From Sedimentisphaerales bacterium (GTDB lineage: Bacteria > Planctomycetota > Phycisphaerae > Sedimentisphaerales > SM23-30), in NCBI GenBank assembly GCA_016934515.1, contig JAFGSR010000009.1, positions 2,375 to 66,374 on the forward strand: DNA of 64,000 bases. Direction: 5' to 3'. Of this stretch, positions 9,388 to 40,309 are shown in pieces. Under the pieces are notes generated by a model that was given only the letters and a program-made list of their open reading frames with translations, was not told the DNA's origin and ran no database searches. The translations under genes and the position numbers were made by a program. Numbering within the stretch: position 1 is the stretch's first letter; every line of letters begins with the position of its first letter.

Positions 9388-9618
9388 GCTCGGATCCTCG
9401 GTAATAAAAAAACGACTGGTTATTATGGTTTTTTTGGGCTATAATATCAACCGTTTTCCGACTATCTAACTAATGAATGTAATGGTGGAATATGGCTGTG
9501 GTTGCCAAAAGCGGTTTTTGGAAGGAAATGCCAAAATCGGGCTTTTTGGGTAAGAATCGGTGAACAGGCGGTGCGGGTGGTGCGTAATGTTAGTTGAAGT
9601 CGTGGTTTGAGGGCTGAT

Positions 9619-11340: not shown

Positions 11341-11452
11341 GCGATTTGGAAAAAGGTTGAAGATCGCTGGATTTTCAGATGCAATTTTTCGGGGTAAATT
11401 ATGGTTTCTTCATCCTCGCGGGACAGCAATAAAAAAGAAAGGGGATTATTTC

Positions 11453-18000: not shown

Positions 18001-18029
18001 GAAAAAATAAAGACAAACCAGAAAGATGA
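15006..18029 (+). CDS. Large membrane protein: BatA-type N-terminal anchor, two VWA domains and a GATase1-like domain
   Basis: N-terminal 'aerotolerance regulator'-type TM pair. VWA-like segments (VIGVLDRSLS...LLLISDGNETDG; HIIVISDGDPSPP). GATase1/ThuA-like segment (HVLVVDADG...ADAIILAN...GGGLIMTGG). C-terminal TM helix and charged tail. ATGA overlap with the upstream gene. Confidence 0.8.
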   Translation: MTGNYHIYFAQPVWLIGWVLIIPLLWLARYNLATLGPVRRFLAVIFRCLTIALLVGLLAQPKLTRENQNLCVIGVLDRSLSIPEPLAKASLQYLIDSLPDKLVQNRFAVVDIAEAASISKLPSNTTEIRQRNTTLFGRQTKLSDGVQMALAIAPPDTATRLLLISDGNETDGDLKEAARIAAANQIPIDVLALRYQYENEVIFKRLVAPAHARSGQTVSLRFVLASTVETQGKLFLTLNGKSVDIDPDSDQVAAVVHLKPGTNVKTISLPLGTRGIHDFKATFIPDDPQRDKITQNNQVSALTAVLGPGHVLVVDADGSSGQTLRGLLGNTNLDIRSCLVDDFPTDLSQLIDADAIILANTDCGSFSFHQQQLLTRYVNDLGGGLIMTGGPSAFGAGGWIGSPVADILPVDLDPPQKKQLPKGALVLVMHACEMPQGNYWGKKVAQAAVKTLSRHDLVGILAYGWQEGGSNWVFPLSVAGNKSAVMAAINQMQMGDMPDLASHIQAAYDKLKDSDAAQKHIIVISDGDPSPPSGNLLGQLKQAGITCTGVGIFPHSPADVNSLRRIAQLTGGRFYNVKNPNQLPQIFIKEAQVVRRALIVEETFTPQISYSLNEITQGLSVPLPDLDGYVLTGPKPGLSQMILNSNQSDPVLATCQSGLGRCLVFTSSLDSRWGSKWLSWSQAENFWEQALLWSAKSAQTGDCEILTDVNGRDVTVNIEAIDPEGKFQTLSNIGAQVISPDVSAKNLQLTQTGPGQYQGRFQADSAGNYILNLRYQKLGEDAQPQITQTPITVPFAPEYRDLSDNFALLQQVSTITGGRILPEDPEMADIFSTAGVKFPETHLPLNQPLMLIWLAVFLLDVAIRRIAFDFKALTKKLAIIFRSPASAKESEQTLERLKVTRRKVQDSYTSSGQDIAVSKAQAKKRYQGADQIADQSAVEMPQAGGAQAVQQAGGKFDGQSSPDSDKKAADDSKTTASPEDQEQSHIQQLLRAKRRAADRKNKDKPER

Positions 18030-18051: not shown

Positions 18052-19086
18052 ATGCCTGAAAACCAGAGGCCATCCGAAAAAGTTGAAAAGCAGTGCGGTG
18101 AATTTCGAGACATGTTTACCAAACTGCATGGTGAAATTTCCCGGGTAATTGTCGGTCATGACGATATTATCGACAACACTCTAATCTGCTTGTTCTGCGG
18201 CGGTCATGTTCTGCTCGAAGGTGTTCCCGGGCTGGGTAAAACCCTGCTGGTTCGCACGTTGAGTTCCGCGTTGTCATTAGAGTTCGGTCGGATTCAGTTC
18301 ACTCCCGATCTCATGCCGGCTGACATCATCGGCACCAACATTGTCATGGAAGACCAAGCTACGGGGCGACGCAGATTTGAGTTTCAGAAGGGTCCCATCT
18401 TCGGTCAGATTATCCTCGCGGACGAAATCAACCGTGCCACTCCCAAGACCCAGTCCGCCATGCTGGAAGCTATGCAGGAATGCTCAGTCACTTCCGGTGG
18501 CACAATTTATCAACTTCCGCAGCCTTTTATCGTGCTGGCCACTCAGAATCCCATCGAACAGGAAGGCACTTATCCGTTGCCGGAAGCGCAGCTTGACCGT
18601 TTCTTTTTCAAATTGCTCGTGCCCTACAGCAATCGCGAAGAATTACGCACCATTATCGACCGCACGACCACTGCTGAAACTCCCCAGGCTAAACCCGTTA
18701 TCAACGCCGAGCAGATAAACTCTGCGCGGGAGTTGGTCAAGCGGGTTGCGGTTGCCGATCATGTTCAGGACTACGCTATCCGACTTACGCTGGCCACTCA
18801 TCCTCAGGGTGAATTCGCTCCCGAGATTACCAACAAATACATCCGTTTTGGCTCCTCGCCTCGTGGTGTTCAGGCGTTGATCCTGTCCGGTAAGGTCCGC
18901 GCGATGCTCGATGGTCGCTATCATCTCAGTTTCGCCGACATTGCTGATTCATTTTTGCCGGCTGTTCGCCACCGCATTTTGCTAAACTTTGAAGGTCAGG
19001 CCGAGGGCATCTACAACGACGATATTCTCCAGCAAATCCTTAGCGAAATCCCGAAATCGGCTGAACAGTCGCTTAACGTGCCATAA
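18052..19086 (+). CDS. MoxR-family AAA+ ATPase
   Basis: Walker A GVPGLGKT, Walker B ILADEINRA, TPKTQSAMLEAMQE, QNPIEQEGTYPLPEAQLDRF. AGGAGG RBS 7 nt upstream. Confidence 0.92.
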   Translation: MPENQRPSEKVEKQCGEFRDMFTKLHGEISRVIVGHDDIIDNTLICLFCGGHVLLEGVPGLGKTLLVRTLSSALSLEFGRIQFTPDLMPADIIGTNIVMEDQATGRRRFEFQKGPIFGQIILADEINRATPKTQSAMLEAMQECSVTSGGTIYQLPQPFIVLATQNPIEQEGTYPLPEAQLDRFFFKLLVPYSNREELRTIIDRTTTAETPQAKPVINAEQINSARELVKRVAVADHVQDYAIRLTLATHPQGEFAPEITNKYIRFGSSPRGVQALILSGKVRAMLDGRYHLSFADIADSFLPAVRHRILLNFEGQAEGIYNDDILQQILSEIPKSAEQSLNVP

Positions 19087-19237
19087 AATTGTTGTAAACC
19101 ATGCGAACCATACAAACCTTTAAACCGTAATAAAAGGAGAAAGCCTTATAAGCCCGAAATTATCTGGGCTGTTATAGCAGCCAGAATGTCCGATTGAACG
19201 GTCGGCATTAACAGTGGTTTTTATAAGGATAATCAGA

Positions 19238-20212
19238 ATGGCAAATTCAACTGCCAAAACTCAACCGCGTATTACCGATCTACTGGACCCGGGTTTCATG
19301 GCCCGGCTGGATGCGCTCGATTTGCTCAGTCGAAAAATCCTCCAGGGTAAGCTCCAGGGACAACGTCGTTCCAAACGTCGCGGCCAGAGTGTCGAGTTTG
19401 CCGATCATCGTCCTTATGTTGTCGGTGATGATTTGCGTTTTGTGGACTGGAATATTTACGGTCGGCTTGAACAGTTATTTCTTAAATTGTTCCTGGAAGA
19501 GCAGGACCTCACCGTGCACATCGTCATGGACGTCAGTGCCTCGATGGATCCGCCGGCTTCACCTTCCTCACCATTATTCTCCGGGAAAACCAAGGATCAG
19601 CCGGCGGATAAAATTTCCAGCAATTCCAAGGCCGTGTTCGTTAAAAAATTGACGGCTGCTCTAGGTTATGTCAGCCTGGTTAACAACAACCGCGTAACTA
19701 TCAGCTCTTTTTCCAGCGGAGTTCAACGTCAACTTCCCAACATGCGCGGCCGCAATTATTTGGCGCAGATGGCGGAATTTCTGGTTACTGAAAAATTCGA
19801 GCGGCCTACAAATTTCGACCAGACCTGCCGACAACTAGCCGCGGGGCGCATCGGCAGCGGCATCATAATTATTTTGTCCGACTTTTTTTTCAAAGAAGGG
19901 TATGATTCCGGTCTGCGGCGAATGATTTCGCCAAAATACGATATTTACGCCATCCAAATCCTTTCTCCCGATGAACTCAATCCCAAGTTGACCGGCGATT
20001 TGCAACTGCTCGACGTTGAAGATGACGACACCGCCGAAATCACCGCCAGCAGTGCTTTGCTGAAATATTACCAGAAAAATCTCGCGGCCTATTGTAACGA
20101 ACTTAAGGATTTTTGTACTCGCCGCGGTGCGACTTATGTGTTGGCGAATTCCGCTGAGCCTGTCGAAACTCTCGTGCTCAACTATCTCCGCCTAATCCGA
20201 CTGATACACTAA
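19238..20212 (+). CDS. DUF58 (VWA-like) protein, MoxR partner
   Basis: G.S.EF...R.Y..GDD.R..DW. motif (RRGQSVEFADHRPYVVGDDLRFVDWN), then DVSASM. The position directly after MoxR is typical. Confidence 0.85.
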   Translation: MANSTAKTQPRITDLLDPGFMARLDALDLLSRKILQGKLQGQRRSKRRGQSVEFADHRPYVVGDDLRFVDWNIYGRLEQLFLKLFLEEQDLTVHIVMDVSASMDPPASPSSPLFSGKTKDQPADKISSNSKAVFVKKLTAALGYVSLVNNNRVTISSFSSGVQRQLPNMRGRNYLAQMAEFLVTEKFERPTNFDQTCRQLAAGRIGSGIIIILSDFFFKEGYDSGLRRMISPKYDIYAIQILSPDELNPKLTGDLQLLDVEDDDTAEITASSALLKYYQKNLAAYCNELKDFCTRRGATYVLANSAEPVETLVLNYLRLIRLIH

Positions 20213-20375: not shown

Positions 20376-22433
20376 ATGCAGTGGCTAACTCCTACAATCG
20401 CACTCTACGCAGCCTCAGTTGCGATTCCGCTTTTGCTGTTGATGTATTTTCTCAAGCTCAAGCGTCAGCAGCACTTCGTTTCCAGTACATTGCTCTGGAA
20501 ACGAGCGGTTCAGGACCTGCAGGTGAACGCTCCTTTCCAGAAAATCCGCCGCAATATTCTACTGCTGCTTCAGATGCTGGCGATTTTGGCTGTGCTGCTG
20601 GCCCTGGCTGGTCCGCTGCTTTCGCTAAACACCACTACGGCTGACCGCCATGTTCTGCTCATCGACCGCTCCGCCAGCATGAAAACCATCGAAAACCAGA
20701 CCACCCGTCTGGAGCTCGCCAAGAAACAGGCCCGCAACTACATTGAATCCCTTCGCAGTCGTGATGTATTCACTTTTCAGGACACTTCTGACCAGGCCAT
20801 GATCATCACTTTTGATAACCAGGCTAAGGTGATGTGCAATTTCACCTCCGACAAGCGACAACTGCTAGCTGCTATCGACAGCATTACCCCCACCGATGCC
20901 GGTTCTTCAATTGCCCAGGCGGTAACTGTCGCTCGCGCTTTCGCCCAGTCCCCCGGAGAGGACAACGTCAATTTATCCGTCAGCAATCCCGCTCAACTAG
21001 TTCTGTTCAGCGACGGCCAAATAAGTGATGCTGAAAAGATTACCATCGGCCCCGATGAAATGATTTTCAACTGTCTGGGCACTTCCGCCGATAATTTTGC
21101 TCTGACTGCTATGCAGGCCCGTCGCTCATACGAAAATCCGGATGAACTTAACATCTTTGCCACGGTTGCCAACTTTTCTGATTCCGCCAGGACAATCGAC
21201 ATTCAACTCGCACTGAATGATCAGGTTCGCGCCGTAAAATCGGTAACCGTCGATCCTCTCAGGCAGGATCCCGCCATCGGCAGTGACCTCCCCGGCAAGG
21301 TGTCTGTCAGCTTCACCCTGAACGGTGTCGAATCCGGCCTGTTGGAAGTCCGACAACTGAAGAAGGATTCGCTCAGCGCCGACGATGCCGCATGGGCAGT
21401 GGTTTCTCCGCCCAAAAGAATTACGGCACTGCTGGTTACCAAGGGCAATCCGCCTCTGGAAACTGCTTTGTCAAGTTGTCCCCTGGCAGCTTTGGACACC
21501 TGCCTGCCCGGTGAGTTCAATGCTAAATTCAATCTTAATTCCAACAGCGGCACTAATGATAATTCCAACGACGACTCCAATACTGATTCCGACGACAATA
21601 CCTATACTAATTCCAACTTAAACCAGACCGATTCATTACCTAAAAATTACGATATTATTATCCTGGATAAATACGTTCCCGAAAACCTGCCTCGGGCACG
21701 ATACCTCGTTTTCGGCCGGCCGCCCAGTGATCTGGGTGTTACTGCCGACGAGCTTATCAAAAACCAGTTTATCGCCGACTGGCGACCCCAGCACCCGGTT
21801 CTCAAATACGTCAACCTTAACAACGTCTTTGCCACCGATTCCCTGAAATACACCTTGCCCCGCGATGCTGAAATCCTTGCCGAATTTAACGAAGCTCCCG
21901 CTATCGTACTGCTGCGGCGACATGGCAGCGTCTTTTTGCTGGTGGGATTCGATGTTATGGAATCCAACTGGCCTTTTGAACCGTCGTTCGTTTTGTTTTG
22001 CTACAACGCTGTAAATTTCCTGGCACTGGAATACAACCAGGATCAACAATACAATCTACCCGTATCCAAACCAGTTACCATCGAAAATCTTCCCCCCGAA
22101 ACCATTGCCCGGATTTCAGTGCCCAACCTCCCGGAGCAAGAAATCATCATTGGTGATTCCGGGGTACTACGTTACTCCGCCACCGAACGCGCTGGTATTT
22201 ACGTTGTCGAAATCCCAGACCAGCCCCCCCGTTATTTTGCGGTGAACCTGTTGAACGAAAACGAAAGCAATATCAATCCACAAAAGGAACTGACTTTCAC
22301 CGGCTTAACATTGCAGGCGCGTGATGAATCACTCTCATTGGCCAATTTACCTTTGTGGCCTTACCTGGTTGCTTTTGCCTTATTCATTGCCGTGCTGGAA
22401 TGGCTGGTTTATATTAAAAAAGTTCGCTTATAA
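20376..22433 (+). CDS. BatA-like membrane protein with VWA domain
   Basis: N-terminal TM pair with the L.LKR motif typical of the BatA N-terminal domain. VWA MIDAS-like LLIDRSASM. N/D/S-rich linker. C-terminal TM helix. Confidence 0.8.
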   Translation: MQWLTPTIALYAASVAIPLLLLMYFLKLKRQQHFVSSTLLWKRAVQDLQVNAPFQKIRRNILLLLQMLAILAVLLALAGPLLSLNTTTADRHVLLIDRSASMKTIENQTTRLELAKKQARNYIESLRSRDVFTFQDTSDQAMIITFDNQAKVMCNFTSDKRQLLAAIDSITPTDAGSSIAQAVTVARAFAQSPGEDNVNLSVSNPAQLVLFSDGQISDAEKITIGPDEMIFNCLGTSADNFALTAMQARRSYENPDELNIFATVANFSDSARTIDIQLALNDQVRAVKSVTVDPLRQDPAIGSDLPGKVSVSFTLNGVESGLLEVRQLKKDSLSADDAAWAVVSPPKRITALLVTKGNPPLETALSSCPLAALDTCLPGEFNAKFNLNSNSGTNDNSNDDSNTDSDDNTYTNSNLNQTDSLPKNYDIIILDKYVPENLPRARYLVFGRPPSDLGVTADELIKNQFIADWRPQHPVLKYVNLNNVFATDSLKYTLPRDAEILAEFNEAPAIVLLRRHGSVFLLVGFDVMESNWPFEPSFVLFCYNAVNFLALEYNQDQQYNLPVSKPVTIENLPPETIARISVPNLPEQEIIIGDSGVLRYSATERAGIYVVEIPDQPPRYFAVNLLNENESNINPQKELTFTGLTLQARDESLSLANLPLWPYLVAFALFIAVLEWLVYIKKVRL

Positions 22434-22506: not shown

Positions 22507-24747
22507 ATGAAACAAATGAAGTTTTTCACGATTCTGGTCTTAGTGATTTGCTTTTGCGGTACTGCAGTCGCCGAAAAACCGGAATACAACGTTGATATCT
22601 TTATCGGTTGGAACGGCTGCTTTCGCCCGCTCGAATGGACGCCTGTCGAAATCGGTATCGGCAGCAATCTTACCGAACCGCTGGCCGGACAGATATTAAT
22701 ATCCGCTCAGCAGGATGAGCTTAACGTCATGAACATCTCCCAGGATTTTGTGCTCCAACCTGACCTGCCCCTGCATCTGCCGATGGTTACCAAGCTGGCT
22801 TTCGCCGCCGACAAATGCCGCCTGCGTCTGGTGAACCAGAACGGCAAAACCTTATGGAAACACGATCTTGACCTCTGGGATTACTCCGACGAGAATCGTT
22901 ATCTTAAGGCCGTCGAAAAAAACGATCTGCTTATCGGTGTGATCGGTCCTCGAAAATTCGGTCTGACCCGCCTGGCGAAAAACACCTCCTGCTGTATTCG
23001 ATATTTCGATCCGGATGACGCCCAAAAAACGCGTGGACAACAAATCGGCCAGGTCTATCTCGAAGAAAAGCTGCCCGCCATGGCTCCCTGGGACTGGACC
23101 GGGTACGTCTCTGTTGACCTGCTCATCCTCTACAATCCGGATTGGCAGGGTTTCCGCATTCAACAACTGAACGCTATCGCTCAGTGGGTGTCCAACGGTG
23201 GAAAATTACTTGTTGTTTTGGCAGACAATCCAGTGCCGCCTAAAAATCCCCTTGCTCAACTGCTGCCCGCCAACATCCAGTCCGCTCGCCAGGGGCAGAT
23301 ATCCCCCGGTCTGCTCCGCCAGTGGTCCCTCGATCCCCAACAAAGCGAATCTGTTACCTGCTGGCCTTTGACACCCAAGCCCGATGCAAACTTTAGCCGC
23401 ACTCAAAAAAACACCCAGGGGCAAACTCTATTCTGCCAAGCATATCGCGGTTTCGGTCGGGTCGGCGTCATCGCCTTTGACCCCGCCCAAATGTCCGAAA
23501 AACAACAAAGCCATGCCGGACAATTCTGGACCAGTCAAATCGCCGCCATCCTGGAAGATTCTGCTATCGACTATGCTGATGCTCCCACCCCGAATAATGA
23601 TGAGAAATCTCAAAATTACTATGGCAGACAAACCTTCCATCAGAAGCGTTCCATAATCTACACCCCTGAAAGTGAAAAAACCCCCGGCGAAGAAGATGAA
23701 AATCAATATTACGACAGTTCTTCTTACAGACTCGGTTTTGCACAAATAGGCAGCAACGCCATTATGGAACACCTCTACAGTATCTCCGAAATGCGTCCCT
23801 TGAGCATCTGGTGGGTCATTCTCCTGCTTACCTTGTTGGCTCTGCTGCTCGGTCCGATTGATTACAAATTCCTCAAAAGCCGCGGTAAACTACCCCTTAC
23901 GTGGCTGACCTCAACCTTCTGGATTATCGTTTTCTCGGTCGGTGCCTATTACGGTATCCAGGCTATCCGCGGTGGTAAGATGCAACTTCGTACGGTATCC
24001 GTAATTGACGGCATCAAAAACTCAGATCACAACTGGAGCACTTCCTACACCGGTTTGTTCGCCCCTTTTAGTGAAAACTATCAGTTTGAAAATCTCCAGG
24101 AGCAACAATGGTGGTCAGGTATTTCACCCGCTCAGGACTATCTTTACCTCCACGACCACGGCGTCGGCAGCCGCAACATCTTTTGTCGACAGGTTGACGG
24201 ATCGAACCTGCCCACTGCGCTGCCCGTTAATATCTGGTCCATGCAAACCCTGCTCAACGAATCACCCCTGGACCAGATGCCCATTGATGCATCACTGACA
24301 AAACAGCAAAATCAATGGACCCTTACCATTATCAACCTTTCCGACCACCCGGTTAAAAATGGTTACGTTCTGATGGATAATAATCAAATTATTCCCTTCG
24401 AAAAGGTGCCGCCACACACAACCATAACCTTCAACAATAATATCGTCACCGATAATCCCTGGGCCAAACCCTTTGGAACGAATGGAACTCATGAATATAA
24501 CTCCTTCGAACCTACCCCAAAAATATCTTCCAAAAACGAAATAGCCTTCTTTGCCCGCGGCATCCTGCAACGCACCGAAGCCATCCAGGCCTATCTTGCT
24601 CACGGGGCCGCTGTCGTCTGCGCCGAATTCGAAAACGCTCCCACGCCTTTCCAGGTTAAAGACTATGCCTGTGAATACAACCATATACAAATAGCACGCT
24701 TAATTATATTTCCCTTAAGCCTTGATGAGGTAACCAAAAATGATTGA
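22507..24747 (+). CDS. Hypothetical exported/membrane protein (746 aa)
   Basis: Signal peptide, about 420-aa extracytoplasmic region, two central TM helices and about 250-aa C-terminal domain. The stop overlaps the ABC ATPase start by 8 nt. Confidence 0.7.
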   Translation: MKQMKFFTILVLVICFCGTAVAEKPEYNVDIFIGWNGCFRPLEWTPVEIGIGSNLTEPLAGQILISAQQDELNVMNISQDFVLQPDLPLHLPMVTKLAFAADKCRLRLVNQNGKTLWKHDLDLWDYSDENRYLKAVEKNDLLIGVIGPRKFGLTRLAKNTSCCIRYFDPDDAQKTRGQQIGQVYLEEKLPAMAPWDWTGYVSVDLLILYNPDWQGFRIQQLNAIAQWVSNGGKLLVVLADNPVPPKNPLAQLLPANIQSARQGQISPGLLRQWSLDPQQSESVTCWPLTPKPDANFSRTQKNTQGQTLFCQAYRGFGRVGVIAFDPAQMSEKQQSHAGQFWTSQIAAILEDSAIDYADAPTPNNDEKSQNYYGRQTFHQKRSIIYTPESEKTPGEEDENQYYDSSSYRLGFAQIGSNAIMEHLYSISEMRPLSIWWVILLLTLLALLLGPIDYKFLKSRGKLPLTWLTSTFWIIVFSVGAYYGIQAIRGGKMQLRTVSVIDGIKNSDHNWSTSYTGLFAPFSENYQFENLQEQQWWSGISPAQDYLYLHDHGVGSRNIFCRQVDGSNLPTALPVNIWSMQTLLNESPLDQMPIDASLTKQQNQWTLTIINLSDHPVKNGYVLMDNNQIIPFEKVPPHTTITFNNNIVTDNPWAKPFGTNGTHEYNSFEPTPKISSKNEIAFFARGILQRTEAIQAYLAHGAAVVCAEFENAPTPFQVKDYACEYNHIQIARLIIFPLSLDEVTKND

Positions 24748-25666
24748 AACCAAAAACCTTACCAAACACTATGGCGATCTGGCTGCCCTGGTCAACCTGA
24801 ACCTGAATATTCAGACCGGTGACATTTTCGGTTTCATCGGTCCTAACGGCGCCGGTAAGACAACCACCATGCGTATCCTGGCCACGTTGCTTGAACCAAC
24901 CTCGGGCCAAGCCTTTATCGACAGCTACGACGTTACCAAAGCCGGTCAAAAGGTCCGCCGCTGCGTCGGCTATATGCCGGACTTCATGGGTGTTTATGAT
25001 GATCTGAAAGTTTTTGAGTATTTGGAATTTTTCGCTGCCGCTTTCAATATCGAACGCAAAAAAAGAAAATCTATCGTCGAAGGCGTCCTCGAACTTACCG
25101 ACCTCCAATCCAAAAGCACCACCGCAGTTGACAGTCTGTCCCGTGGTATGCAGCAAAGACTCGGACTGGCCCGGGTGCTTATCCACGATCCCAAAGTGCT
25201 CATTCTGGATGAGCCCGCCAGCGGCCTGGACCCGCGCGCCCGCATCGAAATTCGTGAGCTGCTGCGTGAATTGAAACGCATGAACAAAACCATCATGATC
25301 TCCAGCCACATTCTCAGCGAACTGGAGGAAATCTGCAACCAAGTGGGCATCATCGAAAGCGGCAAACTGGTCTTTAGCGGGACCATGGACGAAATCAAAC
25401 AACGCATGGGTATCCTAAGCAGGGTTAAGGTCCGCGTCGCCGACCAGCCACAACAGGCTGTGGAGTTGCTCATTGCCCTGCCCCAGATCCAAAACGCCAC
25501 CATCGTTGGCGACCATATCGCCGTAACCTTCAACGAAGGTGCCGATGGAGACGGCATCATCGCCCGCACCCTGGTTTTGGGTAACATTGACGTTATCTCG
25601 CTGGAACCCGAACAGCTAAAACTTGACGACGCGTTTCTGCAACTAACCAAAGGAATCGTCAACTAA
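24740..25666 (+). CDS. ABC transporter ATP-binding protein (ABC-2 type)
   Basis: Walker A GPNGAGKTT, signature LSRGMQQRL, Walker B LILDEPASGLD, H-loop SSHIL. Confidence 0.93.
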   Translation: MIETKNLTKHYGDLAALVNLNLNIQTGDIFGFIGPNGAGKTTTMRILATLLEPTSGQAFIDSYDVTKAGQKVRRCVGYMPDFMGVYDDLKVFEYLEFFAAAFNIERKKRKSIVEGVLELTDLQSKSTTAVDSLSRGMQQRLGLARVLIHDPKVLILDEPASGLDPRARIEIRELLRELKRMNKTIMISSHILSELEEICNQVGIIESGKLVFSGTMDEIKQRMGILSRVKVRVADQPQQAVELLIALPQIQNATIVGDHIAVTFNEGADGDGIIARTLVLGNIDVISLEPEQLKLDDAFLQLTKGIVN

Positions 25667-25732
25667 ACCGAATCAACATTGACTGAACCGGATTAATTTT
25701 GAAATCGTTCGACGTTAACAGGTTGCTTCATA

Positions 25733-27523
25733 ATGGCGCAAATCATAACCAACATCATCGCCCGCCTTAATCCGGCCGCACTAACCGGGCCTATTTTCGA
25801 AAAGGAACTCCTTGTCTCCAGCCGGCGAAAAAGAAACTATTACCTTCGCTTTGTTTATTTAGCTCTTTTGACCATCTTTGTCGGTTACACCTGGTACAAT
25901 ATCGTCGGAGAATTCAGCAACGATTCTGCCGTTTACCGTGCGTCACACATGGCCGAGGCCGGCATTGCCATTACCGCCACTATCGTCTGGTCCCAGTTCA
26001 TCATGATTCAGCTCGTGGCTGTTTCGCTATTGTCCGGTGCCATCAGCGACGAAACCAACAGCCGCACACTCGGCGCACTCATGACCACCCCCATTAGCTC
26101 ACTGCAAATTGTCCTGGGCAAACTCTTCAGTCGATTGCTCCAGCTTTTTCTGCTCCTGGCACTTAGCCTGCCAATCCTGGCCATCGTCCGTGTCTTGGGC
26201 GGTGTACTCTGGGGCTACATCATTTCCAGTCTCTGCATCACTTTCACCGCCATGCTTTTGGCCGGCTCACTCAGCCTTTTATTTTCTATCGACAGCAAAA
26301 AATCTTCCCAGGCATCTGGTGCGGCCCTGGCAACTTTATTTATTTTTTATGGCTTGATACCCTTATTACTCACTTGGCTGATTTTCGAAAATCACCTGTC
26401 GCAAAACTTCCTGGATTATTTTCTCTGTCTGACTAATCCTTTCTACGTCCTAACCTTCAACACCGGCATAATGTTTTCCACAGGTGCTGCTGTCCCGATC
26501 ATTCCCTGGTGGGTGCATTGTCTTTTTTCGCTGGGTGTTTCCGTTGCCATTCTCGCTTTCGCGACGGTGCGAGTTCGCAAAGCGGCCCTAGCCCAGCTTT
26601 TCGGTAAATCAAAAAAATCCAGAAAAAAGCTTCTCGCTGCCCAATCCTCCAACTCATCTGGCTTGCCTTCCAAACGCTCTGATAAAATCAGCCACGTCAA
26701 AGGCCATCCAATCGCCTGGAAAGACCTCATCACTTTCACTCGCAAGCAAACCAAAACTGCCACCAACCGTATCGCAGGGGGAATGGTTCTCATTGGTGCG
26801 CTGTCTTTATATGCTCTTTGCTTTGCCAAAGGATGGTTCAAGGAAGAAGTCTGTCAGTTCGCCTATATTCTGGTTTACATGGTCGTCCTGATAATTTGCA
26901 ATGCCACCATGGCCGCTGAATCCATTACTTCCGAAAAAGAATCACAAACCTGGCCCCTGCTGCTGAACACTTCTCTGACTGACTGGCAAATCATTTTTGG
27001 CAAATATCTCGGTGTGTTGCGCCGCTGCCTGCCAATTTACATTTTACTCGCTGCCCATTTGTTGTTGTTCACCCTGCTTGGCTATATTCACCCGTCCGCA
27101 TTGTTTCATCTGCTCCTGATAGTAATCGGTATCTTTGCCTGGTTTGCCGGATCCGGAATGTTTTTCAGTACCCTAACCAAAAAAACCTCCACCGCCATTA
27201 GTCTGACTATTTTCCTGTCTCTGATGCTGGGTCTCTTTATTCCTATTTGCGGTGGAGTGGGAACGAATGGAGACGCTGCTGAAGTATTATTTTCTGCCAA
27301 CCCACTCGTCCAAACTGGCGTTGTCTTAAATGAAACTCTCGGCGAACGAAATGTTCGTAAACCAGTAAGCCATCTTCGCTACGAATGGCCCACTGACAAA
27401 TACAATTTCAGAGAAACTACATTAATAATTTCTCCATCGACTTTTTTCTATCTCGTTGCCGGATTTTTCTTTACTATCTTTGCCCGAGGCAGCTTGCGTC
27501 GGAACATTTTCGCAAAAACCTAA
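25733..27523 (+). CDS. Internally duplicated ABC-2-type permease, paralog 1
   Basis: About 12 TM helices. Both halves carry an ABC-2 permease signature (ISDE.NSRTLGALMTTPI...I.GK and ITSEKESQTWPLLLNT.L....I.GK). Conserved N-terminus LTGPIFEKEL..SSRRKRNY. Confidence 0.8.
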   Translation: MAQIITNIIARLNPAALTGPIFEKELLVSSRRKRNYYLRFVYLALLTIFVGYTWYNIVGEFSNDSAVYRASHMAEAGIAITATIVWSQFIMIQLVAVSLLSGAISDETNSRTLGALMTTPISSLQIVLGKLFSRLLQLFLLLALSLPILAIVRVLGGVLWGYIISSLCITFTAMLLAGSLSLLFSIDSKKSSQASGAALATLFIFYGLIPLLLTWLIFENHLSQNFLDYFLCLTNPFYVLTFNTGIMFSTGAAVPIIPWWVHCLFSLGVSVAILAFATVRVRKAALAQLFGKSKKSRKKLLAAQSSNSSGLPSKRSDKISHVKGHPIAWKDLITFTRKQTKTATNRIAGGMVLIGALSLYALCFAKGWFKEEVCQFAYILVYMVVLIICNATMAAESITSEKESQTWPLLLNTSLTDWQIIFGKYLGVLRRCLPIYILLAAHLLLFTLLGYIHPSALFHLLLIVIGIFAWFAGSGMFFSTLTKKTSTAISLTIFLSLMLGLFIPICGGVGTNGDAAEVLFSANPLVQTGVVLNETLGERNVRKPVSHLRYEWPTDKYNFRETTLIISPSTFFYLVAGFFFTIFARGSLRRNIFAKT

Positions 27524-27607
27524 AGAACTCAGCATTTTGCATAACCGCTCAGGCTTAACAAAGCCCAAGATTACGAACTGTTGCAACCGGGCAAAAAAAC
27601 TGTAACA

Positions 27608-29443
27608 ATGAAATCGGACTCAAAAAAATTAATCACTCACTTCAGTCTGGCAGCTCTAACCGGCCCGGTCCTGACCAAGGAACTCCGCGTCGCCAGCCGC
27701 CGAAAAAGAAACTACCTCCTCCGTTTCATTTACCTGGCTTTGATGACCTGTTTTGTGGTGTTGGTCTGGTTCAACACTGTTGAAAGCTACAAGTCCGCCT
27801 CCTACGCCACCAGCCGCATGGCCGAAGCCGGAAAAACCATCATCGCCACCATCATCGCCTTTCAGTTCCTCACCACCCAGATCATCGCCGTCATCATGCT
27901 GTCCAACTCCATCAGCGACGAAATCTACCACCGCACCCTCGGCGTGCTCATGACCACGCCCATTAACAGCTTTCAGATTGTCTTTGGCAAGCTCACCGGC
28001 AAACTGCTCCAGATCATTCTGCTCCTGGCTATTTCGCTACCCTTGTTGGCCATCGTCCGCATCTTTGGCGGGGTACCCTGGAATTTTGTCGTTTCCGCCG
28101 CTTGCGTAACTTTCACCGCGGTTATCTTCGCCGGCTCGCTCAGCCTGCTGCTCTCGATCAGCGGACGACGTTCTTATGCTGTCATTCTTAAAACCCTCTT
28201 TATCCTTGGCACTCTTTACGGATTTTTCCCCGCCCTGATCGAATACTGCCTGCAGGGCACCGTATTTATAAGCCTTCTCCCTTCGGTTTTCTATTACCCC
28301 AATCCATTTGGCGTCATGATCCAGATGATCGGCCAAATGCTCAATCCCGGCGCTTTTACCATACAATTCAATTGGCTTCTCCATTGCGCCATCATGCTCA
28401 CCGCTTCAGCTTTTAACATCGCCCTGGCCGTCAAGCTCGTTCGTAAAGCCGCCCTCGCCCAGGCCGTCGGACAAATCAAACACCAAGCCGAATCACAAAT
28501 CATCACCCGAATCCTCAAGCCCAAAAACACCTCCGCTTCATCAAATTCCTCCGCCCTTACAAAAAACTTTCCATCCACCCAAGATTCCCAATCCCTCAGA
28601 TCGGTAACCGGCCCTGCGATTATCTGGAAAGAGCTCCGCACTCCCTTCATCCAGGGCGGTCGAGATTACAACGCCATCGGCCTGATCGTCGGCTGCATCG
28701 CCCTGCTTATTACGTATTTCTCCTCCGCTTACAACCAGGCCCTCGACGAAGATTTTACCCATAGCACTTATGTAATTGTTTTTGTTATGCTCGCCTTGCT
28801 TACTAACATCGTTCTTATCGCCACTTCGATCACCACTGAAAAGGAATCCCGCACTTGGCCCGTTCTGTTGGCCACCACCCAGACCGATTGGCAAATCCTT
28901 CTTGGTAAAGCGGTCGGGGCCTTTCGCCGCTGTCTGGTGTTCTGGCTCTTCCTGGGTGGACACCTGCTGCTGTTCACTCTGGTAAGATACATCCACCCCA
29001 TCGCGATTGTCCACCTAACCATGATTTTCGTCGGCATCGTTATTTTTCTGGCTGGTTCCGGTTTATATTTCAGTGCCCGGTTCAAACGCTCCACCTCTGC
29101 CGTCGTCGCTCACCTTACGCTGCTGCTGATCCTCTGGGCCGGCGTACCTACCATAGTCGCCCTTACCCTTGGTATCGCCAACATCTCCCGCGGTAACCGT
29201 GCCATGGAATTATCCGCCGCTGCCAATCCCGTCATTCAGTCCGGCGTCGTTGCCCATGCCGCCGCGGGCCTTTCCAATGCCCACAATCCCATCACCGAAC
29301 TTAAATACGAATGGGGCTTCCGTTACGACTGGAAAGCCCTGCCCACCACGATCCTGGTTTTCACTTACATGGTGATGTATATAATACTCGGACTGTTATT
29401 TGCCTGGCGCGCCAAACACCGAATCCGAAAAAACATCTTTTAA
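27608..29443 (+). CDS. Internally duplicated ABC-2-type permease, paralog 2
   Basis: Same architecture and motifs as paralog 1 (LTGPVLTKELRVASRRKRNY; ITTEKESRTWPVLLATT). I prefer the ATG at 27608 over TTG 27581. Confidence 0.8.
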   Translation: MKSDSKKLITHFSLAALTGPVLTKELRVASRRKRNYLLRFIYLALMTCFVVLVWFNTVESYKSASYATSRMAEAGKTIIATIIAFQFLTTQIIAVIMLSNSISDEIYHRTLGVLMTTPINSFQIVFGKLTGKLLQIILLLAISLPLLAIVRIFGGVPWNFVVSAACVTFTAVIFAGSLSLLLSISGRRSYAVILKTLFILGTLYGFFPALIEYCLQGTVFISLLPSVFYYPNPFGVMIQMIGQMLNPGAFTIQFNWLLHCAIMLTASAFNIALAVKLVRKAALAQAVGQIKHQAESQIITRILKPKNTSASSNSSALTKNFPSTQDSQSLRSVTGPAIIWKELRTPFIQGGRDYNAIGLIVGCIALLITYFSSAYNQALDEDFTHSTYVIVFVMLALLTNIVLIATSITTEKESRTWPVLLATTQTDWQILLGKAVGAFRRCLVFWLFLGGHLLLFTLVRYIHPIAIVHLTMIFVGIVIFLAGSGLYFSARFKRSTSAVVAHLTLLLILWAGVPTIVALTLGIANISRGNRAMELSAAANPVIQSGVVAHAAAGLSNAHNPITELKYEWGFRYDWKALPTTILVFTYMVMYIILGLLFAWRAKHRIRKNIF

Positions 29444-29556
29444 CACCCATTAACTACTTATGCAGGCAAGCTTTGATTGTCGATTAAAATCCAAAATTGG
29501 AATAATTCCAAAGCTATCCTTTTACATTTTTTCAAATAATATCACTGGATTTAACT

Positions 29557-31212
29557 GTGTCCGAAACCTTAATAAACATCTTTAGCCGTTTGAATCCTGC
29601 TATCCTGACCGGCCCTATCTTCGATAAGGAACTCCGCATTTCCAGCCGTCGAAAAAGCAATTATTGGCTACGCTGTATCTATCTGGCCCTTTTGGCTTTC
29701 TTCATTATTATGGCCTGGCTTCAGGCGACTGTTTTAAGCGGCGGTTTTTCTAACGTTGTTCGCATTTCCCGCATGGCCGAGATCGGTCGCACCACTATTG
29801 TCACCATCATCTGGTTCCAGTTTATTGCTACCCAACTAATAGCCGTGGTCATGCTCAGCAATGCCGTCAGCGAAGAAATCTCCAAACGAACCTACGCCGT
29901 TATGCTCACCACCCCCATTACCAATACCCAGTTCATTCTGGGGAAATTCTTCTCGAAAATCATCCAGTTGATATTACTGCTCATCCTCAGCTTTCCCGTG
30001 CTGGTCATCTTAAGAATCATGGGCGGCATGCCCTGGAACTTTGTCACTGTCGGCTTTTGTGTAACTTTTACCGCTGTGCTCTTTGCCGCCGCGGTCAGCC
30101 TGTTAATTTCCATCGTTAACCGACAAGCTTGGTCCGTCATCTTCCTGGTCACGGCTCTGTTAGCATTGCTCTATGGATTATTACCTCTGATTCTGAATAT
30201 TACAAAATCCCTGTCCGGCTCCGCCGAAACCTTCCTGCTGCTTACTAATCCCTATTACTATCTCATCCGACTTACCGAAAATACCGTTTTTCTCAGAGGC
30301 TCAGCCCTTAGCCTGCCCTGGGTTACCCACTGTCTGTTCATGATTGTCGCATCGGGACTGGTATTGTTTGTCGCTGCTCTGGGCCTGAGAAAAACCGCCC
30401 TCCGCCAGGCCTTTGTACCTCGAACGAACTTATTTAAATCAACATTTTTCAAAAAAATCCCCATATTAGGAAAATCTTCTGATAATCGTCTTAGACCGGT
30501 TAATCGCAAACCAATTATCTGGAGAGAATTATTAATCCCTCCCCTGATCCCGGGTTTTTCAGGTGTTACAACTTATATAGTCCTGCTTGTCCTGCTGCTT
30601 ATTCTGAATGCTTTATTGTTTTATTTTAATTTTTTCGACGAGCCGTCCATCCAGATAGGTTGCCTGTCCATTTTATTGTTCATTACTCTTATCAGAACCG
30701 CCACTTACGCCGCCTCTACCTTCACCCGCGAAAAAGAAGCCCGCACCCTCACACCACTGCTAACCACACCTCTAAGCGACGATGACATTCTCCGCCATAA
30801 AGCCCTGGCCTCGTTTTTACGCAGCCTTCCCTTATGGGCCATCATTTTCACACACCTGCTTTTCTTCTCCCTTGCCGGCATTATCAACTCCCTCAGCTTT
30901 GTTATTGTCCCCCTGATGATGACCGGACCAATATTTTTCCTGATCGGCTCCGGAGTTTATTTCAGCACCCGCCTGAAAACCACAACTAAAGCAGTTGTTG
31001 CCACTTTCGCACTGGCACTGGGTACTTGGTTTATATGTCCCTGCTGTGGTATGGCTAATCCATTTTATATACTCTTTTTTATGTCAACAGAAGTTGACGA
31101 ATTTATAGGTTTTTACTTCTTATTTTGCTTGATCGCCTCCATTGTAGAACTGATTGTCGGATTTTGTTTTTATGTTGCTGCCAAAAAGCATATACGCTGT
31201 AATCTTACGTAA
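29557..31212 (+). CDS. Internally duplicated ABC-2-type permease, paralog 3
   Basis: Same architecture (LTGPIFDKELRISSRRKSNY; FTREKEARTLTPLLTTPL). GTG start. The most divergent copy. Confidence 0.78.
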   Translation: MSETLINIFSRLNPAILTGPIFDKELRISSRRKSNYWLRCIYLALLAFFIIMAWLQATVLSGGFSNVVRISRMAEIGRTTIVTIIWFQFIATQLIAVVMLSNAVSEEISKRTYAVMLTTPITNTQFILGKFFSKIIQLILLLILSFPVLVILRIMGGMPWNFVTVGFCVTFTAVLFAAAVSLLISIVNRQAWSVIFLVTALLALLYGLLPLILNITKSLSGSAETFLLLTNPYYYLIRLTENTVFLRGSALSLPWVTHCLFMIVASGLVLFVAALGLRKTALRQAFVPRTNLFKSTFFKKIPILGKSSDNRLRPVNRKPIIWRELLIPPLIPGFSGVTTYIVLLVLLLILNALLFYFNFFDEPSIQIGCLSILLFITLIRTATYAASTFTREKEARTLTPLLTTPLSDDDILRHKALASFLRSLPLWAIIFTHLLFFSLAGIINSLSFVIVPLMMTGPIFFLIGSGVYFSTRLKTTTKAVVATFALALGTWFICPCCGMANPFYILFFMSTEVDEFIGFYFLFCLIASIVELIVGFCFYVAAKKHIRCNLT

Positions 31213-31256
31213 AGATTCACCAAAATTATTAAACGGTTTTCTGCTAGGTAAAATTC

Positions 31257-33041
31257 ATGATCAAACACCTTGCCAATTTATCCTCTTATATCAGCCCTGC
31301 GTCTCTAACGGGACCCATCTTTGAAAAAGAACTTTGCGTATCCAGCCGACGTCGGCGAAATTACCTGCTTCGTTTTGTCTATCTTATCCTGTTAACCTTT
31401 TTCGTCGTGCTGGTCTGGCTCGGCGAAACACAATTTTCTCGCAACCGCTCGGTCGTTTATCAGGTTTCCCGCCTGGCCGAAGTTGGTAAAACCGTTGTCC
31501 TGACTATTGTCTGGTTTCAGTTTTGCTTCACTCAACTGGTCGCCGTTATCATGCTCTCCAACTCCATCAGCGACGAAATCTACCACAAAACCCTCGGCAC
31601 CCTCATGACCACCCCCATCAATGCCCTGCAAATCGTCCTGGGAAAATTGCTCAGCAAGCTCCTGCAAATCCTTATCCTGATCGGTCTGTCCCTGCCTCTG
31701 CTAGCTGTCGTCCGCGTCTTCGGCGGCATCCCCTGGGATTTTGTCGTCTCCAGCCTCTGCATTAACCTCACCACCGTCATCTTCGTCGCCTCCATCAGCA
31801 TGTTCTTTTCCATCTTCACCCGCCACAGCTATCTCGTTATCATCTTTACTGCCCTGACCATGGCTGTTCTTTTTTATCTGCTACCGATTATTGCCGGACT
31901 AATTTACTTGGGTTGTCATATATGTAACGAAAACACTTTCTTATCTGTTCTTTGCAACTTTAATCCTTATATTACCCAGATAGCCGCAACTGTAAAATTA
32001 ATGTCAGCGCGCGGAATGCCATTTTCTTGCTACTGGCCGGCACACTGCCTGATCTCTCTAGCCGGCTCCGCTGTCATACTAATCTTTTGCGTTAAAATGG
32101 TCCGCAAAGCCGCCCTCGCCCAAGCCGCCGGCATCCCCATTTTTGCCCCCAGAAAAAAATCCTCCCCATCCGCCAAAATCTCCAACCACCCCACAAAAAC
32201 CTCTCCCGTCGCCCGTATAAGAACTGTCTCCGGCTCCGCGGTCCTCTGGAAAGAACTTAGGAAACCTTCCTACTTTCGCCGCGCTAAAATACTTAAATAC
32301 CTCTTTTTTATTTTCGCCCTGGCTGTCCTGGTATTCACCTATATCGGCCTCGCTTTAGAAGACGATTTAAAACACGATGAAGTTCAGATTACTTACGTCA
32401 TTACCATGATGTCCCTGGCCATGCTCTTTACCATCACTCTGCCGGCCACCTGCATCACCACGGAAAAGGAATCCCGCGCCTGGCCTATCCTGCTCGGCAC
32501 TACGCTAAACGACAATCAGATTCTCATCGGTAAATTCCTCGGCCAGATTCGTCGCTGCCTGCCCGCCTGGATATTGATGTTCGCCCACATTACCTTTTTT
32601 ATATTGGATGGAATCATTCGCCCCATTGCTCTTCCCATGATGATTATCATTTCCGCCTGGGTCATAATCTTCTTTTGCTCCACTGGCATCTACTTCAGTG
32701 CCCGCTTCAAACACACCACCACCGCCGTCATTATGAATTTCGCCTTGGCAATATTCCTCTGGTTTCTCGTCCCCTTTGTTTTGCTGCTACTTTGTGAAGC
32801 CTTCAACCTGATTAACGACGACATCGCCGAAGGCTACATTAATTGCATTCCCTTTGTTCAGGCTGTTGTAGTTATCGATGGCGCCTGTAAGCCTGAGTTC
32901 TCATTTTATTGGCCGGAAATCAGACGCATTGGCACCATTTCATCCCTGCTGCTGCTGTCGGTGTTTTTCATTGGCTATTCCACCCTTGCCGCCGCCTTCC
33001 TCTGGCGCGCAAAAAAACTTTTCCGCAAAAAAATCTTCTGA
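31257..33041 (+). CDS. Internally duplicated ABC-2-type permease, paralog 4
   Basis: Same architecture (LTGPIFEKELCVSSRRRRNY; ITTEKESRAWPILLGTTL). Confidence 0.8.
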   Translation: MIKHLANLSSYISPASLTGPIFEKELCVSSRRRRNYLLRFVYLILLTFFVVLVWLGETQFSRNRSVVYQVSRLAEVGKTVVLTIVWFQFCFTQLVAVIMLSNSISDEIYHKTLGTLMTTPINALQIVLGKLLSKLLQILILIGLSLPLLAVVRVFGGIPWDFVVSSLCINLTTVIFVASISMFFSIFTRHSYLVIIFTALTMAVLFYLLPIIAGLIYLGCHICNENTFLSVLCNFNPYITQIAATVKLMSARGMPFSCYWPAHCLISLAGSAVILIFCVKMVRKAALAQAAGIPIFAPRKKSSPSAKISNHPTKTSPVARIRTVSGSAVLWKELRKPSYFRRAKILKYLFFIFALAVLVFTYIGLALEDDLKHDEVQITYVITMMSLAMLFTITLPATCITTEKESRAWPILLGTTLNDNQILIGKFLGQIRRCLPAWILMFAHITFFILDGIIRPIALPMMIIISAWVIIFFCSTGIYFSARFKHTTTAVIMNFALAIFLWFLVPFVLLLLCEAFNLINDDIAEGYINCIPFVQAVVVIDGACKPEFSFYWPEIRRIGTISSLLLLSVFFIGYSTLAAAFLWRAKKLFRKKIF

Positions 33042-35236: not shown

Positions 35237-35388
35237 CTATCTACACCATTAGTGCACACTTCACAACTTCTGGAACTCATTTCACGATCTCTGAAACACA
35301 TTTCACAAATCCCCCCTCAGATTCACACCGCAAAACCAACGCTGCCATTCGCAACAATTTACTTGCCCCCTCAACCAACTCCGGCAAA

Positions 35389-37158: not shown

Positions 37159-37263
37159 AATATCGAAACCTCCAGCGTTCTCTTTAAAACACCGAACATA
37201 ATTGTTCAGAAATAACCGGTCTTGATCTTTAATCCAGCCGAAAACTTATTTTGTCAGAGCTAA

Positions 37264-38991: not shown

Positions 38992-39118
38992 TTGCTATCT
39001 ACCGTCATCTTAGAGCCCTTAACAAAACACACCAAAAACGAGGCCTACCGACCATTAATACAGCCGATATTTCATTTTGTTAGAACCAATTATCCGCTTT
39101 TCACTCGATTCACTCAGC

Positions 39119-40231: not shown

Positions 40232-40309
40232 CAACGGTTGCTTAGCCAATTTACAACTCCATTCCCAAACACACTTATTCACTGAGAAACATTATTGCAC
40301 CATTGTTTT

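Follow-up and report, generated by a model that had tools for sequence, protein, structure and literature searches.

A single ABC ATPase gene heads a tandem array of fused ABC-2 permease genes in a conserved gene cluster of Sedimentisphaerales

Introduction

ATP-binding cassette (ABC) transporters are usually described as one motor per membrane unit and, to our knowledge, sharing of an ATPase has been documented for importers only. Here, we analyze a 64,000-nt stretch of DNA from a Sedimentisphaerales bacterium (Planctomycetota; GenBank assembly GCA_016934515.1, contig JAFGSR010000009.1, positions 2,375 to 66,374; hereafter, the window) in which the gene for one ABC ATPase, or nucleotide-binding domain (NBD), is followed by four genes encoding paralogous ABC-2 permeases, designated P1 to P4. 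An earlier interpretation made from the sequence alone (the original prediction) had proposed that the four permeases are interchangeable cartridges sharing one motor.

The closest described systems each resemble a part of this locus. Among importers, multitask NBDs (MsiK, MsmK, MsmX, and FhuC) and shared energy-coupling factor (ECF) modules allow one ATPase to serve several membrane units (PMC7658222, PMC4519317, PMC10147376). In Rv1217c, two transmembrane domains (TMDs) are fused in one polypeptide and two copies of Rv1218c provide an NBD homodimer, giving a type V transporter with connecting and coupling helices (PMC11406275). DUF4350 proteins were shown to be GldG-like by Makarova et al. 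(2015; PMC5898192), where archaeal DUF4350/GldG-like genes found beside MoxR and vWA genes are predicted to encode a secretion or membrane-remodelling complex. A literature search found no description of tandem, fused type V permease arrays behind one NBD, or of such arrays coupled to a MoxR/VWA/GldG-like gene set.

Results

The window encodes one NBD and four fused permeases

The NBD gene was the only ABC ATPase gene detected among the open reading frames (ORFs) of the 64-kb window and is followed by P1, P2, P3, and P4 (Table 1) after gaps of 66, 57, 113, and 44 nt, respectively. The ORF coordinates, lengths, strand, and spacing of the original prediction were reproduced exactly from the ORF list, as was the overlap it reported between the start of the NBD gene and the stop of the upstream gene for a 746-aa membrane protein (X746), which measures 8 nt (AAAAATGATTGAAAC). 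The TTG codon at 27581 is merely the first possible start of P2. Alignment of the paralogs points to an ATG at 27608, nine codons downstream, which is probably the true start and would give a protein of 611 aa preceded by an 84-nt gap.

The motifs of the NBD are intact, including Walker A (GPNGAGKT), the signature (LSRGMQQR), Walker B (VLILDEP), the D-loop (SGLD), and the H-loop (SSH). The Q-loop position reads GYMPD, with Asp for glutamine, and the same GYMPD occurs in the orthologs of two related loci (L044 and L059). When compared to NCBIfam models, the NBD scored 247.8 bits against DrrA (TIGR01188) and 245.2 bits against GldA (TIGR03522), under the subfamily cutoff of 312.45 and the equivalog cutoff of 402.6, respectively. 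Its sequence matches in the PDB were NBD1 of ABCA3/ABCA1, NosF, and Rv1218c (residues 2-300).

Searches against Pfam ABC2_membrane_2 (PF12679; gathering score, 27.2 bits) placed P1 to P4 above the cutoff with two matched stretches apiece, in agreement with their prior designation as ABC-2 permeases. Pairwise identity was 37-42% over the full length with E values of 1e-80 to 1e-132, and the similarity is therefore not a matter of chance. The internal duplication that had been proposed for each paralog was borne out when a profile of the N-terminal half was aligned to that of the C-terminal half (hhalign probability 96%, E = 3e-9) and when hidden Markov models (HMMs) specific for each half matched the opposite half of P2 (E = 5e-13 and 4e-12). 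P2 was modeled with AlphaFold2 from an alignment of 48 homologs (pLDDT 84.6, pTM 0.81), and the model consisted of 12 long membrane helices, the approximate number expected from the original prediction, plus short interface helices. In the model, one pattern appears twice, namely a connecting helix, transmembrane helices (TM) 1 and 2, a coupling helix, TM3 to TM5, external helices, and TM6, and the two TMD copies are joined by a low-confidence linker (residues 297-345).

A Foldseek search of the PDB with the P2 model gave Rv1217c (8k1o_A and related chains) as the best full-length match, with ~650 aligned columns, while the two halves taken singly each matched NosY best (TM-score ~0.7, normalised to the target). 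Further matches were ABCG2, PmtCD, CcmB, and ABCA7. The matched structures were exclusively of type V, which suggests that the modeled fold of P2 has no domain swap. By sequence, NosY was the sole solved permease detectable (E = 2.7e-4). Because Rv1217c is a fused two-TMD chain that works with an NBD homodimer, the match to it, together with the duplication, upholds the earlier proposal that a full set of two TMDs is present in every paralog. The motifs quoted in the original prediction were present in the paralog alignment, with the exception that the linker given as VRKAALAQ reads LRKTALRQ in P3.

The arrangement recurs in relatives with one to six permeases

In order to place the window among its relatives, we collected 90 loci (L001 to L090), of which L001 to L084, along with the window, were annotated with HMMs made from the window genes. 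A conserved order was found in ~85 metagenomic loci and consisted of genes for a VWA/GATase1-like protein, MoxR, DUF58, BatA/VWA, the 746-aa family, the 308-aa NBD, and the permease array. The combination of one NBD with a variable number of fused permeases, linked to MoxR/DUF58/BatA genes, therefore recurs in related genomes, as had been anticipated. Both ends of the array were visible in 42 cases, and these contained one (6 arrays), two (5), three (13), four (12), five (5), or six (1) permease genes. One permease is sufficient, as seen in the 6 of 42 complete arrays that have no other. All of the NBDs heading arrays with a visible start (55/55) were of the 308-aa type, and a second NBD of this type was found in none of these 55 arrays. 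Identity of the NBD to its 55 orthologs was 69-100%, with a median of 78% vs. ~50% for the class A permeases described below.

Named homologs of the permeases came from metagenome-assembled genomes (MAGs) of Planctomycetota, Sedimentisphaerales, and Phycisphaerae. A profile search of 1.84 billion representatives yielded 1368 clusters (50% identity) at E values up to 1e-30, and nearly all of the top 150 of these 1368 clusters were ~600 aa in length, i.e., fused. The permease family seems to be confined to uncultured or rarely studied planctomycetes. A scan of a genome collection with narrow four-paralog patterns returned L001 alone (labelled Pirellulales), a result to be read with the poor sampling of lineages beyond Sedimentisphaerales/Phycisphaerae in mind.

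At positions 13189-14911 of L085, the public gene calls show small ORFs only; the region encodes an intact, 573-aa permease (family HMM, E = 3e-168). Relying on public gene calls can therefore lead to an undercount of the permeases in an array. A ~835-aa permease variant was also seen repeatedly (L002, positions 13592-16108; proteins P0026, P0040, and P0242). It carries an extra, partial copy of TMD1 (HMM positions 42-210, roughly TM1 to TM4/5) between TMD1 and TMD2, and its ~16 TM helices do not fit a simple two-TMD transporter.

The permeases belong to old, ordered classes

A total of 219 complete permeases were clustered by identity over 574 well-aligned columns. The resulting classes were A (68 members, ~614 aa), B (54, ~600 aa), C (16), D (13, ~570 aa), E (13), and F (5), the last comprising permeases of single-permease loci. 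Identity was 62-67% within classes A to E and 74% within class F, compared to ~38-51% between classes A to E. When arrays were written as strings of classes, the following were obtained: A or F alone; AB; DAB, EAB, or ACB; DEAB or EACB; and DEACB or EDACB. Class B was usually last in the array, and class A also occurred alone in single-permease loci. This class structure and the ordered strings indicate that the paralogs are old, maintained, and positionally ordered rather than interchangeable, and the term "interchangeable cartridges" was thus an overstatement. Within the window, P2 showed 53% mean identity to class A and P4 showed 50% to class B, its nearest neighbors being the last genes of two- and three-gene arrays. 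P1 and P3 had mean identities of at most 43 and 40%, respectively, to any class and were left without one.

Repeats within the array DNA were limited to old direct repeats, 60-70% identical with a gene-length period, and no long identical segments were found. Recombinational cassette switching was considered and rejected; the inverted repeats, of 18-22 nt with 79-83% complementarity, are too short to be of significance.

A close sister lineage (L090, positions 1-2792) encodes a P2 ortholog, of which the 293 C-terminal residues are available and 93% identical to P2, followed directly by a P4 ortholog. P3 is absent, and the 112-nt P2-P4 spacer of L090 is homologous to the P2-P3 spacer of the window. 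The difference amounts to one permease gene that was recently gained or recently lost. P4 was 79% identical to its counterpart in the sister lineage (P0001), with a ratio of non-synonymous to synonymous substitution rates (dN/dS) of 0.29; values for MoxR, BatA, and the 746-aa gene were 0.064, 0.095, and 0.13, respectively. P4 is under purifying selection and is less constrained than the 746-aa gene, BatA, and MoxR. The GC content at third codon positions (GC3) was 0.54 for P1 and 0.53 for P3 (total GC of P3, 0.456) vs. 0.61-0.65 for P2, P4, and the NBD.

The 746-aa family itself occurs in two size classes of ~710-775 aa and ~910-950 aa, the long form being found in L002, L024, L025, L048, and L062. 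Loci with the long form (~920 aa) have their extra permeases past the A-B pair, and those with the short form have them before A or between A and B. This distribution suggests that the array expanded independently in two clades.

An alternative explanation for the array is duplication followed by decay, with only class A (P2) and perhaps class B (P4) being functional and the other copies being drifting tandem duplicates whose role is slight or nil. Such a history would agree with the copy number range of 1 to 6, with P1 and P3 falling in no recurrent class, with the absence of P3 from so close a relative, and with a dN/dS for P4 above the 0.06-0.13 of neighboring genes. However, none of the four ORFs (551-620 aa) is disrupted, and each preserves the NBD-docking motifs. 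Over many loci, classes C, D, and E have each stayed at 66-67% identity and in their positions, which indicates long-term purifying selection. In addition, expansion took place at a different position in each clade, before class A with the short 746-aa family and after class B with the long one. We consider decay of the additional copies to be very unlikely.

The NBD-facing side is common to all classes and TMD2 is class-specific

Regions defined on the P2 model were used to compare identity along the permeases. For P1 to P4 of the window, pairwise identity averaged 0.51 in the cytoplasmic interface, 0.38 in the TM segments, and 0.21 in the outer loops, with individual interface elements at 0.72 (connecting helix CnH1), 0.58 (coupling helix CpH1), and 0.53 (CpH2). 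When the classes were compared, conservation of CnH1, CpH1, TM3, and TM4 between classes nearly matched that within classes (0.80 vs. 0.83 for CnH1, 0.73 vs. 0.84 for CpH1, and 0.82 vs. 0.85 for TM3). In TM7, TM8, TM11, TM12, and the second outer region (ext2), identity was 0.42-0.59 within a class and only 0.16-0.28 between classes; between- and within-class values were 0.16 vs. 0.54 for TM7, 0.23 vs. 0.54 for TM8, 0.18 vs. 0.42 for ext2, and 0.25 vs. 0.52 for TM12. The paralogs of the window followed this trend as well. Class identity thus resides mostly in TMD2, and every motif listed in the original prediction is located on the NBD-facing side of the permease. Such a pattern of conservation does not prove, but would be expected from, docking of every class to a single ATPase together with differences in what each class handles.

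X746 is coupled to the NBD

The predicted X746 protein consists of a signal/anchor helix, a beta-rich domain, a GATase1-like domain, a TM hairpin (~434-487), and a C-terminal domain, and is 100% identical to hypothetical protein JXD22_00575 of a Sedimentisphaerales MAG. No Pfam domain scored above threshold in the X746 family, and X746 had no NCBIfam GldG match. Sub-threshold matches among its homologs were to DUF4350 (28/37) and to ABC_transp_aux (GldG, PF09822; 17/37). An AlphaFold2 model of X746 had a mean pLDDT of 57.5 and was confident only for residues ~200-350, a region for which Foldseek returned the GATase1-like folds 2gk3 and 3rht (planctomycete) and a GH42 trimerisation domain. In 39 of 40 loci, the gene immediately upstream of the NBD belongs to the 746-aa family. 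The two genes meet at a junction of -4 nt in 15 loci, and in the window the value is -8 nt. X746 is translationally coupled to the NBD through this junction.

These observations bear on a second alternative, in which the permeases are mechanotransducers and not a set of exporters. ATP hydrolysis would then move the outer face of the permease and thereby drive a periplasmic partner, as in NosDFY or as presumed for GldAFG. Here, X746, the VWA/GATase1-like protein, and BatA would be candidate partners, the classes would differ in the partner, or in the client of the MoxR/VWA system, with which they engage, and nothing need cross the membrane. Consistent with this scenario, NosY, which works with a periplasmic partner, is the nearest solved homolog by sequence and by the fold of each half, X746, which bears a GATase1 domain of GldG/DUF4350-like character, is translationally coupled to the NBD in almost every locus, and class-specific variation sits in TMD2 and the outer loops. 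The archaeal combination of DUF4350/GldG-like proteins with MoxR and vWA, for which PMC5898192 predicts secretion or membrane remodelling, also fits. On the other hand, the number of candidate partners is constant while that of permeases ranges from 1 to 6, and no one-to-one pairing results. The outer loops are short (~40-50 residues) and form no large periplasmic domain, and Pfam scans of the neighboring genes found no homolog of NosD or NosL. We regard a purely mechanical role as rather unlikely.

Importer genes and a second ATPase flank the cluster in relatives

The original prediction held that no binding protein is present and that an exporter was likely on this account. The first statement is inaccurate for the gene string since a solute-binding protein (SBP) gene (11357-12538) and a type I importer permease gene lie upstream on the same strand, although they belong to another transporter class. 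The SBP scored under the cutoffs of NCBIfam PhnS and sfuA, and the BPD_transp_1 match of the permease (12535-15009) was sub-threshold. The permease, which is fused to NHL repeats, was 57% identical to its orthologs in L085 and L088; its start overlaps the SBP stop and its own stop overlaps the next gene. The SBP gene was present in L085 and L088 and absent from L086 and L087, and it forms part of an importer that some lineages carry as an insertion in the cluster.

An ATPase gene of 370-420 aa follows the last permease on the same strand in 27 of the 42 complete arrays in relatives. All 38 of the downstream ATPases examined group with a UgpC/MalK-type protein, and because that protein passes the NCBIfam UgpC cutoff and has MalK OB and TOBE_2 domains, they were identified as type I importer ATPases. 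No UgpC/MalK-type ATPase, nor any matching importer ATPase, was found among the window genes, and the UgpC-type gene was likewise absent from L086, L087, and L090, which keep four, four, and at least two permeases, respectively. L085 possesses both the SBP/NHL-permease genes and a terminal UgpC-type ATPase gene, and L086 and L087 possess neither. Because of this co-occurrence, which was seen in three loci only and to which the window is an exception, we assigned the second ATPase to the importer and not to the ABC-2 permeases. In the window, the importer genes sit between the coiled-coil gene and the VWA/GATase1-like gene, and the UgpC-type gene is at the far end in relatives; the importer genes would thus bracket the whole MoxR/ABC-2 cluster there. 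In L086 and L087 (~20380-22154), the array is followed by dTDP-rhamnose genes (NTP_transferase, dTDP_sugar_isom, and RmlD-like) in place of the UgpC-type ATPase, which may hint at a cell-surface glycan context or be mere neighborhood.

The second ATPase is central to a third alternative, namely that the single NBD is a local artefact and that some paralogs pair with NBDs encoded elsewhere or with the downstream UgpC/MalK-type protein. Only 64 kb of the genome is in view, such an ATPase does follow 27 of 42 complete arrays, and multitask ATPases that serve permeases encoded at unlinked sites are a familiar feature of importers (PMC7658222, PMC4519317). In opposition to this idea, the downstream ATPase is of the type I importer class, which is not known to couple to ABC-2 membrane domains; it is missing from the window, L086, L087, and L090 in spite of their multiple permeases; and it tracks the importer genes in the few loci with both ends visible (both in L085, neither in L086 and L087). 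Moreover, the same docking motifs are kept in all paralogs. We judge hidden partner ATPases to be improbable.

Gene order and neighboring genes

The genes of the cluster are listed in Table 1. The coiled-coil protein at its start was 44% identical over its full length to the product of a 553-aa gene of L086 that adjoins the VWA/GATase1-like gene upstream; it matched no curated family and gave generic coiled-coil matches only. The VWA/GATase1-like gene occupies an equivalent position in L001, L002, and L085 to L089.

Table 1. Genes of the cluster in the window, in 5' to 3' order.
Feature	Coordinates	Strand	Description	Family evidence
Coiled-coil protein	9607..11286	+	Membrane-anchored, 559 aa; first gene of the larger cluster, conserved	
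Solute-binding protein	11357..12538	+	PhnS/ThiB/Fe3+ class	Pfam SBP_bac_6, SBP_bac_11, SBP_bac_1
Importer permease	12535..15009	+	Type I (BPD_transp_1) with fused C-terminal NHL beta-propeller	Pfam NHL 115 bits
VWA/GATase1-like protein	14997..18029	+	VWA + GATase1-like (PF07090), 1010 aa	Pfam VWA 63 bits, GATase1_like 44.9 bits
MoxR	18052..19086	+	MoxR-type AAA+ ATPase	Pfam AAA_3 208.7 bits, AAA_lid_2
DUF58 protein	19214..20212	+	VWA-like partner of MoxR	Pfam DUF58 101.9 bits
BatA-type protein	20376..22433	+	Membrane protein, N-terminal double-TM domain + VWA	BatA 42.4 bits (cutoff 25.9), VWA_2 64.7
X746	22507..24747	+	746-aa membrane protein, directly 5' of NBD	
NBD	24740..25666	+	ABC ATPase, 308 aa, DrrA/GldA/ABCA class, C-terminal domain present	Pfam ABC_tran 102 bits
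P1	25733..27523	+	Fused two-TMD ABC-2 permease, 596 aa	PF12679 87.6 bits
P2	27581..29443	+	Fused two-TMD ABC-2 permease, 620 aa, core class A ortholog	PF12679 52.3 bits
P3	29557..31212	+	Fused permease, 551 aa, shortest and most divergent	PF12679 42.9 bits
P4	31257..33041	+	Fused two-TMD ABC-2 permease, 594 aa, class B ortholog	PF12679 67.7 bits

A convergent PBP2 gene lies 44 nt past P4 and is also present in the sister lineage L090. The convergent region (33086-40282, minus strand) encodes a PBP2-type transpeptidase, a CvpA (colicin V production) domain protein, and two T2SSE-type secretion/pilus ATPases. A PADLOC search of the cluster proteins gave generic ABC-ATPase and coiled-coil similarities and no specific defense-system match, and the notion that the MoxR/VWA genes form an anti-phage defense system was dropped.

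The GC skew of the window (1-64000) changes smoothly and to an extreme extent, from +0.39 at 1-2 kb to ~0 at 16-18 kb and -0.44 at 34-36 kb and 46-48 kb, returning to ~0 at 52-58 kb and becoming negative again thereafter. Skew at third codon positions ranged from +0.48 in the 559-aa gene to -0.52 in P4. Since these genes are all on the same strand, the gradient is not due to gene orientation. Both its size and its course are unusual for bacteria.

Discussion

Taken as a whole, we think it somewhat probable that several type V transporters, each complete and specialised, are served by one NBD homodimer, that class A is ancestral among them, and that X746 is an accessory protein linking them to the MoxR/VWA module. 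The region would represent the ABC half of an envelope gene cluster conserved in Sedimentisphaerales (Planctomycetota). A homodimer of the 308-aa ATPase would dock onto each of the four fused permeases, one at a time. Each permease would form a pseudo-heterodimer (TMD1-linker-TMD2) that, with two copies of the NBD, makes a complete transporter, as Rv1217c does with Rv1218c. The connecting and coupling helices and the TMD1 core common to all paralogs would serve as docking elements, whereas the class-specific TMD2 and outward loops would specialise the paralogs for different cargo or periplasmic partners. P2 would be the ancestral core unit, which works alone in single-permease relatives, P4 a common second unit, and P1 and P3 lineage-specific additions. 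X746, being GldG/DUF4350-like, is probably a periplasmic accessory and the tie between the ABC module and that of MoxR/DUF58/VWA. The preferred order of classes and the dN/dS of P4 (0.29) count in favor of this explanation, as both indicate that the paralogs are maintained and non-redundant.

Several points weigh against it. P1 and P3 are class-less and lower in GC3, the sister lineage dispenses with P3, and some permease copies may therefore contribute little. The GldG-like assignment of X746 comes from sub-threshold HMM matches and a model of low mean pLDDT. The view is limited to 64 kb, and orphan NBD genes elsewhere in the genome are possible. With equal expression, four permeases would need eight NBD chains. 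Scans of promoters (24 promoter-like sites vs. 19 expected) and terminators (21 terminator-like sites vs. 21.6 expected) were at chance level and gave no indication of operon structure, and an internal promoter could lie in the 113 nt that separate P2 from P3. Docking of the NBD onto any or all paralogs, and with it physical sharing, is what we infer from the conserved interface; an outward or mechanical direction, co-transcription, the role of X746, and the nature of the substrate are likewise putative.

A broader proposal, possible though doubtful, is that the whole string, from the coiled-coil gene to the one to six permeases, encodes one undescribed envelope machine of Phycisphaerae. In such a machine, one ABC ATPase dimer would be time-shared among class-specific permeases that hand cargo or force to a periplasmic scaffold assembled by MoxR/VWA proteins. 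If true, ABC transporters of the exporter fold would for the first time be seen to share an NBD, and MoxR-VWA and GldAFG-like systems, both long uncharacterised, would be functionally linked. Even on the narrower explanation favored above, one ATPase gene with up to six complete permeases of the exporter fold would mean that ATPase sharing reaches type V transporters as well. The pairing of a constant docking face and TMD1 with a variable TMD2 would also amount to a natural experiment in specificity. Finally, the tight and conserved coupling of the ABC genes to X746 and to the MoxR/DUF58/VWA genes would offer a concrete partner for two widespread gene sets of unknown function, the Bat/MoxR-VWA operons and the GldAFG-like "uncharacterised ABC transport systems."

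Comparison with known systems

The locus shares with the MoxR operons of the Bat type the genes for MoxR, DUF58, and a BatA-type VWA protein; families typical of BatB, BatC, BatD, and BatE (TPR, BatD, SH3) were not found among the cluster genes in Pfam scans. The DUF4350-MoxR-vWA neighborhoods of PMC5898192 are similar in that MoxR, DUF58/vWA, a BatA-type VWA protein, and a membrane-anchored protein with an extracytoplasmic flavodoxin/GATase1-like domain occur in one gene string. The components listed for them in Table 2 of that work include no ABC transporter; in the present cluster, the GldG-like gene is translationally coupled to that of an ABC ATPase, behind which the permease array lies.

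GldA, GldF, and GldG, the ABC transporter of gliding motility in Bacteroidota, are alike in a further respect, with GldA being the second-best NCBIfam match of the NBD and GldF the best match of the permeases, and with X746 showing weak GldG/DUF4350 signals and a GATase1-like fold. They differ in that GldF is unfused, the TM helices of GldG are terminal and the hairpin of X746 is central, and genes for type IX secretion (T9SS) or gliding do not accompany the cluster. The permeases scored no more than 39.2 bits against the GldF model TIGR03518 (cutoff, 288.5), and with scores so far below equivalog cutoffs, the likeness to Gld is one of resemblance and not of membership. Nor was the locus assigned to the DrrAB-type exporters, since the NBD falls below the TIGR01188 cutoff.

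NosDFY (PDB 7o0y and related entries) resembles the locus in the NosY fold of each permease half, in the presence of NosF among the NBD matches, and in the ABC-2/COG1277 annotation "multi-copper enzyme maturation permease." In contrast, NosY is an unfused, 6-TM homodimer encoded by a single gene and needs the periplasmic beta-helix protein NosD together with NosL; neither family turned up in Pfam/NCBIfam scans of the cluster genes, and the locus was not placed in NosDFY(L). The closest architecture is that of Rv1217c-Rv1218c of Mycobacterium tuberculosis (PDB 8k1m-8k1p), in which two non-identical type V TMDs in one chain work with a separately encoded, ~300-aa NBD that has a C-terminal domain. 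That system shows a sequence identity of only ~12%, has a drug efflux role and no MoxR/VWA/GldG-like neighbors, and possesses one permease gene per NBD gene as opposed to one to six here.

Multitask NBD systems, in turn, match the proposed use of one ATPase by several membrane units, but they are importers of type I, type II, or the ECF kind whose permeases are usually scattered over the genome. In the locus described here, the permeases have a type V exporter fold and lie in tandem, directly behind the ATPase gene.

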